Positions 1,209 to 38,790 of a stretch of 44,545 bases of DNA are shown piece by piece. The position numbers were made by a program, and so were the translations under genes. The notes beneath the pieces are model-generated. The model searched no databases. It had not been told where the DNA came from and saw nothing but the letters and a program-made list of their open reading frames with translations. The DNA is taken from the IMG/VR virus record IMGVR_UViG_2737471829_000005; one strand, given 5' to 3'. Each line of letters starts with the position of its first letter. Position 1 is the first letter of the stretch. Origin of the DNA: a virus. Lineage: Duplodnaviria > Heunggongvirae > Uroviricota > Caudoviricetes.

Positions 1209-1233
1209 ATAAAAAAGGCCCCCGAAGGGGCCT
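1209..1233 (-). terminator. Intrinsic terminator; functional on the minus strand, hairpin also present on plus
   Basis: aggcccc-cgaa-ggggcct, 7-bp GC stem, preceded by A6 on plus, giving a U-run on minus. Confidence 0.55.
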
Positions 1234-1238
1234 AATCG

Positions 1239-1361
1239 CTACTTGCTGCTAATGTTTATCGTCACATTCAGAGCGTTATCAGTAATCTTCCAACCCTCCC
1301 CATGTGGCGTAAACAAAGCTCCAGTAACAACGATAAAAATACACATGTAGTATTTTTTCAT
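1239..1361 (-). CDS. Small hydrophobic peptide of about 40 aa (MKKYYMCIFIVVTGALFT...); possible membrane peptide or type I toxin candidate
   Basis: Internal ATG at 1361 with AAGGG RBS 7 nt upstream; hydrophobic N-terminus; terminator directly downstream. Confidence 0.25.
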   Translation of the reverse strand: MKKYYMCIFIVVTGALFTPHGEGWKITDNALNVTINISSK

Positions 1362-1425
1362 TGTGTGGCCCTTACAGGCCGTTTCACGGCATCCCCACCG
1401 ACGAAAATGACGCGAGAGCAAGCAC

Positions 1426-1445
1426 GCTGTTTGTGCCTGCGTGGT
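1426..1445 (+). repeat. Direct repeat copy 1 (gctgtttgtgcctgcgtggt)
   Basis: 19/20 identical to 1676-1695, 250 bp apart, in an ORF-poor region. Confidence 0.5.
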
Positions 1446-1633
1446 ACGGCAAGTGGATAATCCTTTCCTGAAAGTCAGTGCCCGGGTGCGAATCGGCGGA
1501 AAGGCCCCAAGCCATATTACACGTCATACCCTTCATAATGAAGGAATAAAAAACGCTTTTATTACATAAGATTACACGTAAATAAGTTAAAAACCTTCAT
1601 TTTGCATGAGCTAATGAGCTAAATTTTTTTATA

Positions 1634-1751: not shown

Positions 1752-1779
1752 AACCGTCCTCAAAAGGACGGTTTTTTTG
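1752..1779. terminator. Intrinsic terminator; strong on plus, overlaps the stop of the minus-strand HTH gene
   Basis: aaccgtcc-tcaaaa-ggacggtt followed by T7. Confidence 0.6.
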
Positions 1780-2332
1780 TTTCTCCCCCTTCCTTCCCAA
1801 ATGATTCAAATGTTAATGAGAGTGAATCATTTGATATGTTCGATTTAGCGCCGTTATCGACCCAATTTCTGTATGCTTCATCACAACAGTACCTTACAGC
1901 AGTTGGAGTAACAGGGATGCCGCCCCCAAATGAGAATCCCATTGAGCTAATGCTAACTCTTTCGAATGGCCTATTTCTCAATGCTTCAAACCCCTTGCTA
2001 TTAAAGTAACGCAGCATCAGAGGTAAAAGGTTATCCTCGTCCTGACTGATTGTTCCAGGGAAAAAGTAGTAACCATAACGGTTAAATTCGGGAATAAGAT
2101 TTTCTACCAATGACATGAAATTCACTGGAGTAATATTAAGGGCTGTGAAAGCACCAAAAAGGGCGTCAACTGTTAATACAGACTGCCCGTTCTCTATCTT
2201 TGTCCATGCGTTTGGTGTTTTTCCAGCAGCTTGAGCCAGCACTCCTTGATGCACACCTCTTTCTAGCCTAAGTTCTTTTATGATCATTAGGTGAATTGTT
2301 GAAAAACATGAGTTTTTTGACTGTTCAATCAT
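1760..2332 (-). CDS. HTH (XRE-like) transcriptional regulator with C-terminal domain, divergent from the antirepressor operon; candidate immunity repressor
   Basis: 190-aa ORF; N-terminal helix-turn-helix-like segment LAQAAGKTPNAWTKIENGQS. Confidence 0.55.
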   Translation of the reverse strand: MIEQSKNSCFSTIHLMIIKELRLERGVHQGVLAQAAGKTPNAWTKIENGQSVLTVDALFGAFTALNITPVNFMSLVENLIPEFNRYGYYFFPGTISQDEDNLLPLMLRYFNSKGFEALRNRPFERVSISSMGFSFGGGIPVTPTAVRYCCDEAYRNWVDNGAKSNISNDSLSLTFESFGKEGGETKKPSF

Positions 2333-2514
2333 TTTTTATCCCCATACTGAATTTTTTCTTGTTCCCGAATTTAACAAAATTCCACAACTCAGGACTGATT
2401 GATTCCTTACAGGAACTATACATTCCCATTTTTAGCATATCAAGAAAATTAAAAGCCCCGCATTCAAACCCACACTATGTGGTTGTCTCTGTTAAAATCC
2501 CGCCGTATTGACAT

Positions 2515-2616
2515 AAATGCGCCATTGGTGGACACTTTCCGAGCCGTAGCAAAATCTACGGCCGGGATTAGCCTCCTGAATAACACGATGGCGCATACCG
2601 CGTTAGCGGTTTTTTT
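2515..2616 (+). ncRNA. Candidate small regulatory RNA upstream of the small ORF and antirepressor (P1 c4-like position)
   Basis: TTGACA at 2508-2513; internal hairpin gccgtag...ctacggc; terminator-like hairpin plus T-run at 2597-2616; the -10 is poor. Confidence 0.25.
2597..2616 (+). terminator. Short intrinsic-terminator-like hairpin with T-run
   Basis: accgc-gtta-gcggt followed by T6. Confidence 0.4.
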
Positions 2617-2778
2617 ATGCGTAGAGCACTGTTACGCCCAAATTATGGTGGGTCGTACAGGGGCGGAGAAATCCGCGCCGGTTCGTCATTGTGTCCGGTA
2701 AGGCTAACCCTGTACGGCTCACCACCATTTGATTAGCCTCGAATGGCGGTGATAGTTCCATATACTGGAGATATCACA

Positions 2779-2970
2779 ATGACAAACCTACCCCATGACT
2801 ATTACGTCAACCTCGTAAAGATCCTTCTCAAGAAAGCCTCATACGCCGATAAATTCCGCCTGGCTGAAATCATCGAGCGCGAAGCTATGCGCATCGCCAG
2901 CAACGATAACGCTGTTTCTGACGCAAAAATCTCCCTCGTAACCAAAGTAGTTATGGGAGGTGCAAAATGA
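2779..2970 (+). CDS. Small protein (63 aa) overlapping the antirepressor start; Icd-like position
   Basis: ATG at 2779 with GGAG 8 nt upstream; stop overlaps the antirepressor ATG (ATGA). Confidence 0.45.
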   Translation: MTNLPHDYYVNLVKILLKKASYADKFRLAEIIEREAMRIASNDNAVSDAKISLVTKVVMGGAK

Positions 2971-4112
2971 AAACGCTTCCGACCGTTAACACCCTACAGC
3001 CTATCCTGCATAACCAAATCCCTGTCATTACTACCGAGTTACTAGCACAGCTTTACGGCACTGAGCCGGTGCGTATTCGCCAGAATCATCATGAGAACAA
3101 AGCACGTTTCGTTGAAGGGAAACACTTTTTCAAAGTTGTTGGTAATGACCTTAAAGAATTGCGGGTAGCTTTAAACTACTCTCAAAATCCAGTTTCACCT
3201 AAAGTCCGCTCCCTCATCCTCTGGACAGAACGCGGGGCTGCACGTCACGCTAAAATGCTCGAAACCGATCAGGCGTGGGATGTATTCGAACGGCTGGAAG
3301 ACTGCTACTTCAACCAGAACGCGCAAACGGCCGCGACCGTAACCGTCTCACCAAACAATGCTCGTGAGGTTGTCGATACGCTCAACGCTAAACCAATGTA
3401 TTACATTAAGGTGTGCAACAACGAGCCACTCACAACCTCAGCCGATGTTGCCCAGGCATTCAGCACCACAAACAATTCCATCGTTATGGCCATCGATGCG
3501 TTACGCATTCCTCGCACAGCTGCGGCGCGTCACTTCTTTAAAGAGCAACGACCGCTGGAAGGAAGCGACCGCGAAATAACAATCTATCGCATGACAAAAG
3601 ACGGATTTACCTTGCTCATGGAGAGCATCGACGGTCCAAGCGTGAAAGATATCAAGCTGGCCTACATTGAAGCCTTTAACGCTATCAGCAGCGTGTTAAA
3701 AACACAGTACGAGCGTGATCTGGCTAAACGACTATACCAGGAAAAAACGATTATCCGCGCGGCAACAGAGCATAATCGGCTATTAACGGAACCGAACTAC
3801 AGGAAGGAACTAATCAAGGAGTTTGACAAGGCAACAGGGAAAACCAAAGCGGCGCTAAGTCTGCCAGCAATGACTCAGGAAAATGTGATATCAGCCTTAC
3901 TTCTTGATCTGCTCAGAAACGCCAGAGCACTTATCAGCTTTGACGAAAACCTGAATCCTCAGCTCAAGCTACTACCACCGACAGGCAAAGTAGTCGACCA
4001 AGCAGATCACAACAGCATACTCAGCGTACTGGATGCAAACCTGCCAGCCAGGACACTACAGGATCTGATAAAAACATGTGCTGATAAGCTGGCACAGAAA
4101 AGCAGACCATAA
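2967..4112 (+). CDS. Phage antirepressor (Ant-like; ORF6N/AntA-type N-terminal domain)
   Basis: 381-aa ORF; N-terminal region typical of antirepressor/Rha-type proteins; terminator directly downstream. Confidence 0.65.
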   Translation: MKTLPTVNTLQPILHNQIPVITTELLAQLYGTEPVRIRQNHHENKARFVEGKHFFKVVGNDLKELRVALNYSQNPVSPKVRSLILWTERGAARHAKMLETDQAWDVFERLEDCYFNQNAQTAATVTVSPNNAREVVDTLNAKPMYYIKVCNNEPLTTSADVAQAFSTTNNSIVMAIDALRIPRTAAARHFFKEQRPLEGSDREITIYRMTKDGFTLLMESIDGPSVKDIKLAYIEAFNAISSVLKTQYERDLAKRLYQEKTIIRAATEHNRLLTEPNYRKELIKEFDKATGKTKAALSLPAMTQENVISALLLDLLRNARALISFDENLNPQLKLLPPTGKVVDQADHNSILSVLDANLPARTLQDLIKTCADKLAQKSRP

Positions 4113-4116
4113 CTAC

Positions 4117-4149
4117 AAGGGGCTACGGCCCCTTACTCTTTTCTCTCTT
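4117..4149 (+). terminator. Intrinsic terminator ending the antirepressor operon
   Basis: aaggggc-tacg-gcccctt followed by a T-rich tract. Confidence 0.6.
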
Positions 4150-4850
4150 ATCAACACCAGAGACTTTCTGAAAATCCTTTCGAATAGCGTCAGCGTCACG
4201 CGCCAAGCCCATACTCGAACGTGTCGCCATATGACGAAAATGATCAACTGCCGGAAACAAAGAAATAATGGACCCAATAGCTTGCAGCAAACTCGCTTTT
4301 CTACGCATCATAATTCCACCATAACCGATAGCCACCCTTCAGACACAACCCCCCCTCCCCCCATACAGGGTGCCCTTTACCGGAGTTCCGGCCCCTTCTC
4401 AAAAGCATCAAAAAAAGCTCGAGATCGAGTACCGGAACTCATGCCACCAGATAGCTCCACATCGTTTCCAATGCTTCGCCGCCGTGTGCGCCCTGTGGCC
4501 CACAATCATGCCATTGGTCGTCTGATATACCTTCTTCTGCTCATTGAGCACAGGCGAGTTGTCGCACTCCTGCCTTTCTCAGACTCGACTTAGTTTAGAT
4601 CGCTGTTCCTAGCTTGCGTCAGCACACTTTCCCCTTGTACGCATACCCGCGCGCCACTCCGCCCAAAAACACCGAACCCAACGAAGTGGCAAAGACAACG
4701 ACGCGAGCGTGAGTCTGAAACAGGCACCAGTAAAAAAGGGGTTGCAGGCGCAAAAAGATTTGATTATCTTTAGACGCAAGAAAGCCGCCCCAATCAAGAG
4801 GTGTCTTTTTAAATCCAGCCTACCAAGCAAGATTTAAATTTCAGACTGAA

Positions 4851-5801: not shown

Positions 5802-6101
5802 TCAGATGTTAAACGCTATTCGTTTTCCTGTGGGAAGCTCAACATCCAGGCTTAATTTGCCTCCCATAGCTTCAACGTAACGCTTTAATGTCGCCAGCTT
5901 TAAATCATTTCCGCGCTGCTCCAGCTTTGTTACTGCTGGCTGGCTTATACCCATCGCCTCAGCAACCTGTTTTTGTGATAACTGGAGTTCTTCACGCATC
6001 ATCTGCAAGCCGACCTCAAGAATCATCTCATCTGCCATTTCTTTAATTCGCGCCTGGCTTTCAGGTGAACGGCTGGCAATCACCTCATCTAATGTTCTCA
6101 T
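5802..6101 (-). CDS. HTH (XRE-type) antitoxin, HigA-like
   Basis: 99-aa ORF with HTH motif; overlaps the upstream toxin-like gene by 1 nt. Confidence 0.7.
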   Translation of the reverse strand: MRTLDEVIASRSPESQARIKEMADEMILEVGLQMMREELQLSQKQVAEAMGISQPAVTKLEQRGNDLKLATLKRYVEAMGGKLSLDVELPTGKRIAFNI

Positions 6102-6448
6102 TACTTGCTCTCCAGTGTGTTCAGATGTGCTGCAAACTCATCCTCAGCTATACGCACCAGTTTTTCATAAAACCGTTTATCGTTACTTTTGTCTCCTGCA
6201 CAAAGAACGATGGCCCGGCGAATCGGATCGAACGCATAAAAGGCTCTTATCGGACGGCCAGAAAACTGAACGCGAAGCTCTTTCATATTTTTGTACCGAG
6301 AACCTTTTACGGTATCGGCATATGGCCTGGGTAACTCAGGTCCGTAAACCTGTAGCTTTTTCAAATCAGCCAAAACCTTTTCCTGAAGAGCGTCTTCTTG
6401 CTCATTTAGCCAGTCGTCAAATCGCTGGCTAAAAAGTACCGTCCACAT
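6101..6448 (-). CDS. RelE/HigB-superfamily toxin (Gp49-like addiction-module killer)
   Basis: About 115 aa; toxin-first order with HTH antitoxin downstream; ATG at 6448 (the ORF track start at 6454 is TTG). Confidence 0.65.
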   Translation of the reverse strand: MWTVLFSQRFDDWLNEQEDALQEKVLADLKKLQVYGPELPRPYADTVKGSRYKNMKELRVQFSGRPIRAFYAFDPIRRAIVLCAGDKSNDKRFYEKLVRIAEDEFAAHLNTLESK

Positions 6449-6456
6449 GCTCAATC

Positions 6457-38714: not shown

Positions 38715-38790
38715 TGGTGGCCCCTACCGGATTTGAACCGATGACCGTGCGATTATGAGTCGCCTGCTCTAACCACTAAGCTAAGGGGCC
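38715..38790 (-). tRNA. tRNA with CAU anticodon (Ile2-like or Met elongator; not distinguishable by eye)
   Basis: Reverse complement is GGCCCCTTAGCTTAGTGGTTAGAGCAGGCGACTCATAATCGCACGGTCATCGGTTCAAATCCGGTAGGGGCCACCA: 7-bp acceptor stem, D-arm, CTCATAA anticodon loop, GGTTCAAATCC T-arm, encoded CCA. Confidence 0.85.

Follow-up and report, generated by a model that had tools for sequence, protein, structure and literature searches.

The immI operon of phages P1 and P7, reportedly described by Citron and Schuster in 1990 and 1992, has the order c4, icd and ant1/ant2. In P1, RNase P cuts at the 5' end of c4, and the resulting RNA, stable and about 77 nt long, acts in trans to repress ant; Rho polarity operates as well. 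In phage P4, the processed CI RNA, which comes from an untranslated leader, pairs with repeated targets (seqA and seqC) on both sides of itself in the same transcript, as is predicted for the locus described here. CI targets replication genes, whose transcription it terminates, and neither an antirepressor nor a leader ORF is involved. The P4 immunity analogy was also drawn by the authors of the study on Gifsy-1 (PMC4825925). There, IsrK activates AnrP translation in trans through an a1:a' helix that includes G28/C162 and G31/C159, and a processed RNA, STnc1160, is located where C4 lies (PMC4825925). Both IsrK and the RNA at the C4 position are abundant in lysogens (PMC7067206). The c4 antisense RNA and c4-a1b1 motifs were described by Weinberg et al. 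2010 (PMC2864571; RF01695, RF03163), and a review from 2025 continues to treat IsrK and c4 as two systems (PMC12197685).

The window analyzed here is the whole 44.5-kb stretch of DNA from an E. coli phage-plasmid of about 48 kb. This element has a P2-like tail and an IncFII-type RepA, is not a punavirus, and in this respect is unlike P1. To judge from its sequence, the region in Table 1 is very probably an immI-type "secondary immunity" module, made up of a pair of small RNAs, a leader ORF and the gene of an antirepressor. Its features are far beyond chance level, with Rfam E-values of about 1e-12 and pairings that covary across homologues. The module is an ordinary representative of a phage immunity switch that is already known, had formerly escaped annotation, and adds nothing to what is known in principle.

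An earlier sequence-only reading of this DNA had listed an HTH regulator divergent from the module, a TTGACA hexamer on the plus strand, an RNA with hairpins and a short terminator, a 63-aa ORF overlapping the antirepressor start, and a terminator after the antirepressor. Every listed feature was found in the sequence. Its likening of the arrangement to c4-icd-ant was right as to a system of the P1 kind, but the parts were misassigned, the putative decoy RNA having been taken for the antisense RNA. The idea that a structured RNA may control the antirepressor through a small upstream ORF, as in immI, agrees with the C4 RNA that Rfam places there.

Table 1. Positions of the module features in the 44.5-kb window.
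Feature	Position	Strand	Basis or remark
HTH regulator gene, 190 aa	1760-2332	-	ORF; Pfam HTH_31/HTH_3
Module promoter	2508-2536	+	Sequence; -35 TTGACA 2508-2513, 17-nt spacer, -10 GACACT 2531-2536
IsrK / c4-a1b1-type small RNA, 74 nt	2543-2616	+	Rfam isrK, 68 bits; three hairpins, the last being the terminator
a1, TTAGCCT	2568-2574	+	Loop of IsrK hairpin 2 (fold)
b1, CACGATGGC	2584-2592	+	After a1 in IsrK
IsrK intrinsic terminator, ACCGCGTTAGCGGT then T7	2597-2616	+	Terminator call
C4 antisense RNA	2641-2729	+	Rfam C4 (RF01695), 70.8 bits, cut-off 45
b', GTCATTGTG	2685-2693	+	In 13-nt loop (2682-2694) of C4 hairpin 2
a', AGGCTAA	2701-2707	+	In 8-nt unpaired junction (2700-2707) of C4
a2 target, TTAGCCT	2733-2739	+	Exact reverse complement of a'; just after C4
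SD-sequestering hairpin (GGAG 2767-2770)	2749-2777	+	Predicted fold; 3' arm overlaps b2
b2 target, CACAATGAC	2775-2783	+	Spans ATG 2779-2781 of the 63-aa ORF
orf63, 63-aa leader ORF	2779-2970	+	SD GGAG 2767-2770; PHROG 7886 full length, E = 2e-47
Antirepressor gene ant, 381 aa, ORF6N + Rha	2967-4112	+	Pfam ORF6N (PF10543) and Phage_pRha (PF09669); PHROG anti-repressor families; start overlaps orf63 stop in ATGA 2967-2970
Operon-end terminator hairpin	4117-4134	+	Terminator call; common to a convergent small ORF

Promoter region and the first RNA

The -10 box of the module promoter ends 7 nt upstream of the RNA start, the same geometry as in the annotated P1 promoter P1c4. In other loci, IsrK is preceded by boxes of the TTGAC.../TATATT type, whose distance from the RNA start matches that seen here. 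Two observations count against the main explanation: the -10 box is weak, with 3 of 6 consensus positions, and a promoter scan of the region did not call this promoter. The same kind of scan showed no promoter-like site between the IsrK terminator and orf63. On the minus strand, a promoter-like TTGATA-17-TATAGT (2443-2415) lies on the side of the HTH gene. This gene is absent from the nearest relative (L022), and the similarity of NZ_AP022164 to the window begins only at about 2466. An operator search in the divergent promoter region (2300-2560) found short weak repeats only and, unlike in P1, where the primary repressor C1 controls the promoter by way of the operator Op51, no C1 operator is evident at the module promoter.

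The first RNA matched the Rfam covariance model isrK (RF01394) above its cut-off (68 bits vs 50), while the match to c4-a1b1 (RF03163) at 2530-2582 reached 36.7 bits, under the cut-off of 46.7. The isrK model covers the terminator hairpin too and passes where the c4-a1b1 model falls short; it also picks up the P1 a1b1 leader, with 35 bits. Gifsy-1 IsrK and the P1 c4 a1b1 leader are one and the same element.

The sequence-only reading held that this promoter-proximal RNA, of about 100 nt, is itself a c4-like antisense repressor of the ribosome-binding region of the small ORF. The promoter, hairpins and terminator are present, and the RNA has a 10-nt sequence in common with the region upstream of the ORF. 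This repeat, GATTAGCCTC, is real: it occurs exactly twice in the window, where shuffles predict 0.04 matches and none of 100 reached two. Its copies begin at 2566 and 2731 (the second spanning 2731-2740), the positions first reported being off by one. The repeat is, however, direct and not inverted, being the a1/a2 copy pair. IsrK holds both a1 and b1, same-sense copies of both C4 targets, so that its possible pairing partner is C4 and not the ribosome-binding region. The RNA-RNA interaction check that had been suggested gave the same picture, the best duplex of IsrK with the orf63 translation-initiation region (2730-2800) being equalled by 223 of 300 shuffles, vs none of 300 for the duplex of C4 with the orf63 start region. 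The complementarities of 8-9 nt noticed earlier do exist, but their partner is the C4 RNA ahead of the small ORF and not its ribosome-binding site. One consists of 7 bp between TTAGCCT and AGGCTAA (a1 and a'), and the other of 9-11 bp, including two G-U pairs, around CACGATGGC and GTCATTGTG (b1 and b'). Rfam calls the first RNA isrK/c4-a1b1 and places C4 at 2641-2729, and covariation (see below) ties the first RNA to C4. It is thus highly improbable that the first RNA is the c4 equivalent.

The C4 RNA and its targets

The C4 match is full length (model positions 1-87), with a score close to that of P1 (68.8 bits in P1, 70.8 bits in the window). C4 lies upstream of the antirepressor gene, on the same strand. 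The minimum-energy fold (-46.6 kcal/mol, z = -6.35) is the family consensus, a tRNA-like long closing stem around two hairpins, and a' and b' are precisely the segments that are unpaired in it. This true C4, downstream of the IsrK terminator, had been overlooked in the first reading. By homology with the annotated P1 c4 RNA, mature C4 would be about 2647-2726. An acceptor-like stem and a 3' CCACC tail are present in the window C4 as in P1 c4, and by this analogy C4 appears to have the structural prerequisites for excision from a longer transcript.

Between the b2 target and the C4 loop there are 9 Watson-Crick pairs. The target lies on the start codon of orf63, unlike b2 of P1, which lies on the SD; this counts against the main explanation. 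The SD-hairpin architecture is also predicted in the relatives L017, L018 and L020, with differing inner stems.

The P1 record is annotated in the order promoter, a1, b1, c4, a2, b2, icd and ant. The window follows P1/P7 immI in having a promoter, an a1/b1 leader with a terminator-like end hairpin, C4, a2/b2, a small ORF and an antirepressor gene, whose start and the stop of the leader ORF overlap by 4 nt. The locus also resembles isrK-orf45-anrP of Gifsy-1, with an IsrK above the Rfam cut-off, a C4-family RNA about 25 nt later, an a1:a' helix and an SD hairpin. As for the Weinberg motifs, one copy of each is present in canonical order and orientation upstream of the antirepressor gene, although the c4-a1b1 copy is under its cut-off.

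The leader ORF and the antirepressor

The orf63 sequence is conserved among relatives, with 0-5 nt differences in 192. No Pfam, NCBIfam or Icd match was found for it, and the window leader ORF differs in this from P1/P7 immI. The HMM comparison with the Icd (cell-division inhibitor) family that had been proposed was negative: the NCBIfam model NF033153 misses orf63 and detects the P1 Icd control with 52.6 bits, and BLASTP against P1 Icd was empty. By sequence, then, orf63 is best regarded as a positional analogue only of icd. An AlphaFold2 model made without an alignment has two helices and a mean pLDDT of 63, too poor for a fold search; orf63 is modelled as a small, conserved helical protein. 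Gifsy-1 differs from the window in lacking such a separate conserved 63-aa ORF between C4 and the antirepressor gene. An equivalent of its orf45 was also sought. The Gifsy-1 frame begins within the C4 segment, has 45 codons and ends in ATGA at the start codon of the antirepressor gene; in the window the corresponding frame is closed by a stop within C4, after 18 codons.

The antirepressor is full length, its 381 aa aligning end to end with the 383-position PHROG 8244. Its N-terminal 159 aa are 53% identical to Gifsy-1 AnrP (E = 2e-48), and ORF6N is present in both. The window protein has an extra Rha domain, and the antQ and isrJ neighbours of Gifsy-1 are missing. Homology to P1 Ant1 was rejected: BLASTP gave no significant alignment, and P1 Ant1 belongs to PF03374 (KilAC domain), unlike the PF10543 and PF09669 domains of the window protein. 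There is a strong SD of its own, GGGAGGTG, at 2955-2962, and no significant local structure that would sequester it was found. Dependence of ant on orf63 translation is therefore not assured, and this, like the lack of Icd homology in orf63, counts against the main explanation.

Covariation of the pairing sites and proposed regulation

The three a sites (a1, a' and a2) covary both in 22 curated loci and in 89 viral contigs. The curated loci contain 8 a' types and 16 b' types, and in all of them a1 is the reverse complement of a' and identical to a2. For a1, the sequence was taken directly in L017-L019 and by an anchor pattern in the other loci. In alignment A1, made with MAFFT from 18 sequences of this set, 92.9% of the cells in the a1:a' helix are paired and 6 of 7 pairs show compensatory double changes. 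None of 500 shuffles was as good, and pairing dropped to 23-51% when the partner was slid. A1 places a' of two P1-type sequences one column off and splits a2 by gaps; a2 and b were therefore assessed by anchor-based analysis and by comparing cognate with non-cognate pairs. Duplex energies for a were about -9 kcal/mol for cognate pairs vs -5 for non-cognate ones, and for b about -12 vs -6 to -7 kcal/mol. In the 89 independent IMG/VR contigs, with 12 a' types among them, a sequence exactly complementary to a' was present upstream in 87 and downstream in all 89, vs 13/979 upstream and 1/979 downstream for non-cognate a' types. In each of 20 further loci, C4 comes directly after isrK.

These data bear on the reading in which the role of the C4-like segment is confined to cis, within a translationally silent fold of the read-through mRNA that IsrK binds and opens in trans, with no processed C4 acting in trans. 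This was demonstrated for isrK-orf45-anrP with compensatory mutants in the a1:a' helix; mRNA refolding accounts for regulation there, and no processed C4 working in trans is invoked (Hershko-Shalev et al. 2016, PMC4825925). Moreover, extra STnc1160, expressed constitutively, did not counteract IsrK (PMC4825925). Both results count against the main explanation, and the window shares with Gifsy-1 the IsrK, the a1:a' helix and an SD hairpin, here at orf63. However, a2 and b2 track a' and b' no less closely than a1 and b1 (89/89 contigs), and an IsrK:C4 helix acting in cis needs neither. The C4 fold also retains two traits of P1 c4, which RNase P processes, namely the tRNA-like stem and the CCACC tail at the 3' end, and the orf45 frame used by the Gifsy-1 model is closed after 18 codons in the window. 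We consider this reading, in its pure form, unlikely but worth weighing; the two models are not mutually exclusive.

The module could also be a decayed remnant with recognisable RNAs that regulates nothing in this plasmid prophage now. Several close relatives (L018, L020 and L022) have a split antirepressor gene or one recorded as a pseudogene, and the -10 box is weak. In the window, by contrast, the promoter, both RNAs, the four target sites, orf63 and full-length ant are all intact. Compensated changes set the a/b sequences apart from those of relatives at each of the three sites, which requires selection on pairing. Loss of function is accordingly hard to credit.

In the immI-type reading that we prefer, the single promoter would drive the whole module. 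The majority of transcripts would go no further than the terminator, yielding the IsrK-like RNA of 74 nt, and read-through transcripts would carry the tRNA-like C4, followed by orf63 and ant. C4 would be cut out of these transcripts, and its two unpaired segments would pair with a2 and with b2 across the orf63 start codon, in a region probably already partly closed by the hairpin. With orf63 untranslated, ant would not be made. As the ant start overlaps the orf63 stop, this loss may come about through lost translational coupling, Rho polarity, or both. IsrK carries a1/b1 mimics of a2/b2 and may therefore compete for C4. IsrK in excess would relieve the block, and the antirepressor would then move the prophage towards lytic growth, as shown for IsrK and AnrP in Gifsy-1. 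Candidate targets of Ant are the 190-aa HTH protein and a CI-like XRE regulator that relatives carry immediately beyond the window. The a and b sequences would constitute a specificity barcode, different from one related element to the next, comparable to the a and b sequences that set specificity in P1/P7 heteroimmunity.

The edge of the barcode cassette is exactly the orf63 start codon, and the RNA region is 81-90% identical among relatives. It seems that the cassette is swapped, or diversifies, as one block. The a' type ACGCCAA is common to Gifsy-1, many Stx phages and the Yersinia phage vB_YpM_41, unlike the AGGCTAA of the window. The latter a' type and the b' loop found here are absent from the 89 sampled viral contigs.

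Both RNAs lack annotation in the inspected RefSeq/GenBank records of this phage-plasmid family, so that its lysis-lysogeny control is invisible at present. The 48.5-kb plasmid of the E. coli reference strain ATCC 25922, a relative with 90% identity, belongs to this family. Treating IsrK and the P1 c4 leader as one system allows both bodies of experimental work to be read together. We tentatively suggest, as a possibility with somewhat less than even chances, that IsrK-type RNAs are dedicated C4 decoys (anti-antisense RNAs) and that the barcode defines immunity groups linking or insulating co-resident prophages and phage-plasmids. If so, elements with a common barcode would cross-repress or cross-induce each other's antirepressors, and the element studied here, with an a' type and b' loop absent from the sampled contigs, would be insulated. 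The barcode is readable straight from sequence, and could be used to foresee cross-immunity or cross-induction between prophages of the same cell.

RNA elements ahead of the leader ORF

The window was scanned with Rfam at curated thresholds, and a separate permissive scan was run for sub-threshold matches. At curated thresholds, isrK scored 68 bits (cut-off 50) and the adjacent C4 antisense RNA 70.8 bits (cut-off 45). The permissive scan added c4-a1b1 (RF03163, 'a1, b1 targets of C4 antisense RNA') at 2530-2582, which overlaps isrK and lies under its cut-off at 36.7 bits. The sequence-only reading had described a divergent HTH gene, a TTGACA hexamer, hairpins with a short terminator, a 63-aa ORF (orf63) overlapping the antirepressor gene (ant) and an end terminator, all of which are in the sequence. 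It had taken the promoter-proximal RNA for the c4 equivalent of a P1-type c4-icd-ant module. The Rfam matches identify that RNA as IsrK, an a1b1 leader, and place C4 3' of the IsrK terminator, within what had been called the region before the small ORF. The observation is thus confirmed and the likeness to P1 holds in the kind and order of elements, but the RNA assignment was wrong. Folded alone, C4 adopts the family consensus (-46.6 kcal/mol, z = -6.35), predicted as two hairpins inside a long tRNA-like closing stem, leaving unpaired the loop at 2682-2694 (13 nt) and the junction at 2700-2707 (8 nt). In the window, C4 retains the acceptor-like stem and the CCACC tail at its 3' end.

Features of the antirepressor module and of other elements in the window
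Feature	Position	Strand	Basis
ryfA element	1211-1509	-	Rfam, full length, 134.6 bits (cut-off 80)
HTH gene	1760-2332	-	Pfam HTH_3/HTH_31
-35 box TTGACA	2508-2513	+	Sequence; 17-nt spacer to -10
Weak -10 box GACACT	2531-2536	+	Sequence
IsrK / a1b1-type RNA, 74 nt, three hairpins	2543-2616	+	Rfam isrK RF01394; last hairpin a terminator followed by seven T
a1, TTAGCCT	2568-2574		Loop of IsrK second hairpin
b1, CACGATGGC	2584-2592		IsrK; 9-11 pairs with b', two of them G-U
C4 antisense RNA	2641-2729	+	Rfam RF01695
b', GTCATTGTG	2685-2693		C4 loop; exact complement of b2
a', AGGCTAA	2701-2707		C4 junction; exact complement of a2
a2, TTAGCCT	2733-2739		mRNA target
Conserved box, GGCGGTGA	2745-2752		Between a2 and b2
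b2, CACAATGAC	2775-2783		mRNA target; contains the orf63 ATG
orf63, 63 codons	2779-2970	+	ORF; GGAG upstream
Antirepressor gene (ant), 381 codons	2967-4112	+	ORF; ATGA overlap with orf63; ORF6N and Rha domains; PHROG anti-repressor families
Terminator hairpin	4117-4134	+	Sequence
Toxin-antitoxin pair, overlapping genes	5802-6454	-	Gp49/HigB-like toxin (PF05973) and HTH_3 antitoxin
tRNA gene, anticodon CAU	38718-38790	-	Rfam tRNA, 65.8 bits; tRNA-Ile in the NZ_AP022164 annotation

The 190-aa HTH gene (1760-2465 compared) is present in L017 (Yersinia phage vB_YpM_41) and the related locus L019 and is missing from the closest relative, NZ_AP022164 (L022), whose similarity starts only at about 2466. 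It is therefore a variable accessory of the module and not a fixed part. A direct repeat (TTAAAAGCCC / TTAAAATCCC, 2449-2458 and 2492-2501, 43 nt apart) has one copy next to a promoter-like site for the HTH gene on the minus strand and its second copy just 5' of the -35 box of the IsrK promoter; the copies may be candidate operator half-sites or a chance match. Relatives encode a CI-like XRE regulator just outside the window, next to its start.

Pairing and covariation of the RNA elements

Following the P1 GenBank annotation, the unpaired C4 segments are named a' and b', their mRNA targets a2 and b2, and the same-sense copies in IsrK a1 and b1; together they form a barcode. The 10-nt direct repeat of the sequence-only reading (GATTAGCCTC) is real, occurring twice in the whole 44.5-kb window (shuffles predict 0.04), although its copies start at 2566 and 2731, one base from the positions first reported. 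It corresponds to a1/a2, which share TTAGCCT. Because it holds same-sense copies of the targets, IsrK can pair with C4 and not with the mRNA. In duplex tests against 2730-2800, C4 was equalled by none of 300 shuffles, while the best IsrK duplex was no better than chance (223/300), so the pairing claimed between the first RNA and the small-ORF RBS region is not borne out; the IsrK:C4 duplex was equalled by 3/300. The IsrK region was rejected as the C4 antisense repressor, being same-sense to the targets and having the C4 family match 3' of its terminator.

The orf63 SD lies within a predicted local hairpin (2749-2777) whose outer stem includes the 5' part of b2; three relatives share this predicted architecture with different inner stems. 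The conserved box between a2 and b2, found as GGTGGTGA in nearly all loci (columns ~219-227 of A1, an alignment of 18 IsrK-C4 sequences), shows complementarity to the 3' arm (TCACCACC) of the stem that closes C4 and also forms the 5' arm of the SD hairpin. Both sides of this pairing are altered in P1-type loci (GGTAGCAGG with CCTGCCACC). The box may pair in an alternative way and so couple RBS opening to C4 folding or processing.

Twenty additional loci were fetched from Stx-converting and other lambdoid phages, Gifsy-1, phiV10, cdtI, a P1-like phage, vB_YpM_41, three E. coli plasmids of ~48 kb and one chromosomal prophage, and all 20 carry isrK followed by C4 ~20-25 nt later. With P1 and the window, these 22 loci contain 8 a' types and 16 b' types. 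In every one a1 equals a2 and the reverse complement of a' (19 by anchor-based script, three read directly from sequence), and cognate duplexes are more stable than non-cognate ones by ~3.5 kcal/mol for a and ~5 kcal/mol for b. In A1, which draws on part of these loci, 92.9% of the cells in the a1:a' helix are paired, with compensatory double changes at 6 of its 7 pairs; none of 500 shuffles was as good, and sliding the partner lowered pairing to 23-51%. An exact-pattern scan of IMG/VR gave at least 120 further loci, 89 of which were parsed with full flanks. Among the matches listed, these 89 have 12 a' types and 32 b' loops; the exact a' complement occurs upstream in 87/89 and within 30 nt downstream in 89/89, against 13/979 and 1/979 for non-cognate a' types as control. 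There b' likewise favours its own partners, and the a' type and b' loop of the window are absent from these loci.

In two IMG/VR contigs, complete promoter-IsrK-C4-target cassettes stand in tandem, as three copies at 656-bp spacing in L053 and as two in L093, each copy with a short gene 3' of it. The a'/b' barcode differs per copy, so several immunity specificities lie adjacent in one phage.

Comparison with P1 and Gifsy-1 and a proposed control

The P1 GenBank record has the order of the window: promoters P2c4 and P1c4, a1, b1, c4 RNA, a2, b2, icd and ant1. In that record ant1 overlaps the stop of icd, as ant does that of orf63. The distance from -10 to RNA start is 7 nt in both. P1 DNA scores 68.8 bits for C4 and 51 bits for c4-a1b1 in Rfam, and its a1b1 leader is also matched by isrK (35 bits), terminator-like hairpin included; this leader and IsrK thus belong to one kind of element. 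The proteins of the two modules differ. Against an Icd-like nature of the 63-aa ORF, orf63 had no BLASTP similarity to P1 Icd, and the NCBIfam Icd model, which gave 52.6 bits on P1 Icd as control, did not match it. Nor was the window antirepressor similar to P1 Ant1, whose domain is KilAC instead of ORF6N and Rha. These BLASTP and domain/model searches rule out the module proteins as homologues of P1 Icd and Ant1.

The N-terminal ORF6N domain of the window antirepressor is 53% identical to AnrP of Gifsy-1. There, PisrK yields short IsrK and, by read-through, a translationally silent isrK-orf45-anrP mRNA, and IsrK in trans switches on translation of orf45 and, by coupling, of anrP (Hershko-Shalev et al., PMC4825925). 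Helix b-I, proved with the compensatory mutants G28A/C162U and G31A/C159U (PMC4825925), is the a1:a' pairing found in the window. A processed stable RNA, STnc1160, is located 3' of IsrK (PMC4825925), and the Rfam C4 match in Gifsy-1 falls exactly there (L014 1501-1584), a position that suggests STnc1160 is C4. Both RNAs show high expression in lysogens of Gifsy-1 in every condition tested (PMC7067206). While orf45 has 45 codons, starting inside C4 and ending on the anrP ATG, the equivalent frame of the window closes after 18 codons, and the leader position is held by the separate 63-aa ORF, as by icd in P1.

This analysis shows to which families the RNAs belong, how they fold, which segments are complementary and covary, and how the genes are arranged; beyond this, we propose the following control as the most likely one. 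The promoter output would be mostly short IsrK, and C4 would be excised from a read-through precursor; in P1 the C4 excision cut is made by RNase P. Binding of C4 to a2 and b2 would occlude the orf63 start and so keep the antirepressor off, silencing ant by lost coupling, Rho polarity or both. IsrK would compete for C4 via a1 and b1, and its excess would derepress ant. Against this scheme stand a -10 box that is weak, a strong SD of ant's own, over which no significant sequestering structure was found, and the failure of additional STnc1160 to antagonise IsrK in Gifsy-1 (PMC4825925).

Variation within the phage-plasmid family

The window, which covers most of a ~48-kb phage-plasmid of E. coli, carries ParA, an IncFII-family RepA, a Gp49/HigB-like toxin with HTH antitoxin and tail genes like those of P2. 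Many E. coli plasmids match it at 91-99% identity, and Yersinia phages vB_YpM_39/41/44 at 93-95%. The ryfA element, located between the HTH gene and the partition genes, encloses a small hydrophobic ORF (within 1239-1421) and is present in all four relatives examined (L017-L020); it may stabilise the plasmid prophage in the manner of a type I toxin-antitoxin element. PGAP annotates the toxin-antitoxin pair in L022 as a RelE/ParE toxin and an HTH protein. In the plasmids L018 (2031-3299) and L020 (2005-3147) and in L022 (45280-46425), all otherwise very similar, PGAP annotates the antirepressor gene in two pieces, as an ORF6N pseudogene and a distinct Rha-family CDS; in the window the 381-aa protein is intact. 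The splits may reflect inactivation in some plasmid prophages. The isrK and C4 RNAs are unannotated in the inspected RefSeq/GenBank records (L017-L022), and a 'hypothetical protein' CDS of vB_YpM_41 (L017 2687-2974) passes through C4 into orf63.

The orf63 DNA differs at 0-5 of 192 nt among seven family members, and vB_YpM_41 encodes exactly the same protein, whereas identity over 2500-2800 is only 81% with that phage and about 88-90% with several plasmids. The differences cluster in a1/b1, a'/b' and a2/b2 and end at the orf63 ATG. A sharp mosaic boundary lies at this start codon (2779-2970 versus 2543-2778, loci L017-L022). Five family members carry four barcode combinations.

The locus is an unannotated instance of the already known C4/IsrK (immI-type) antirepressor control modules and will not surprise a specialist. 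Of modest value are the equation of IsrK with the P1 a1b1 leader, the quantified three-site covariation of the barcode, and its diversification observed inside one phage-plasmid family. Within this family the RNA region is a hot spot of variation, a pattern that fits diversification or exchange of immunity specificity, like that of P1 versus P7.
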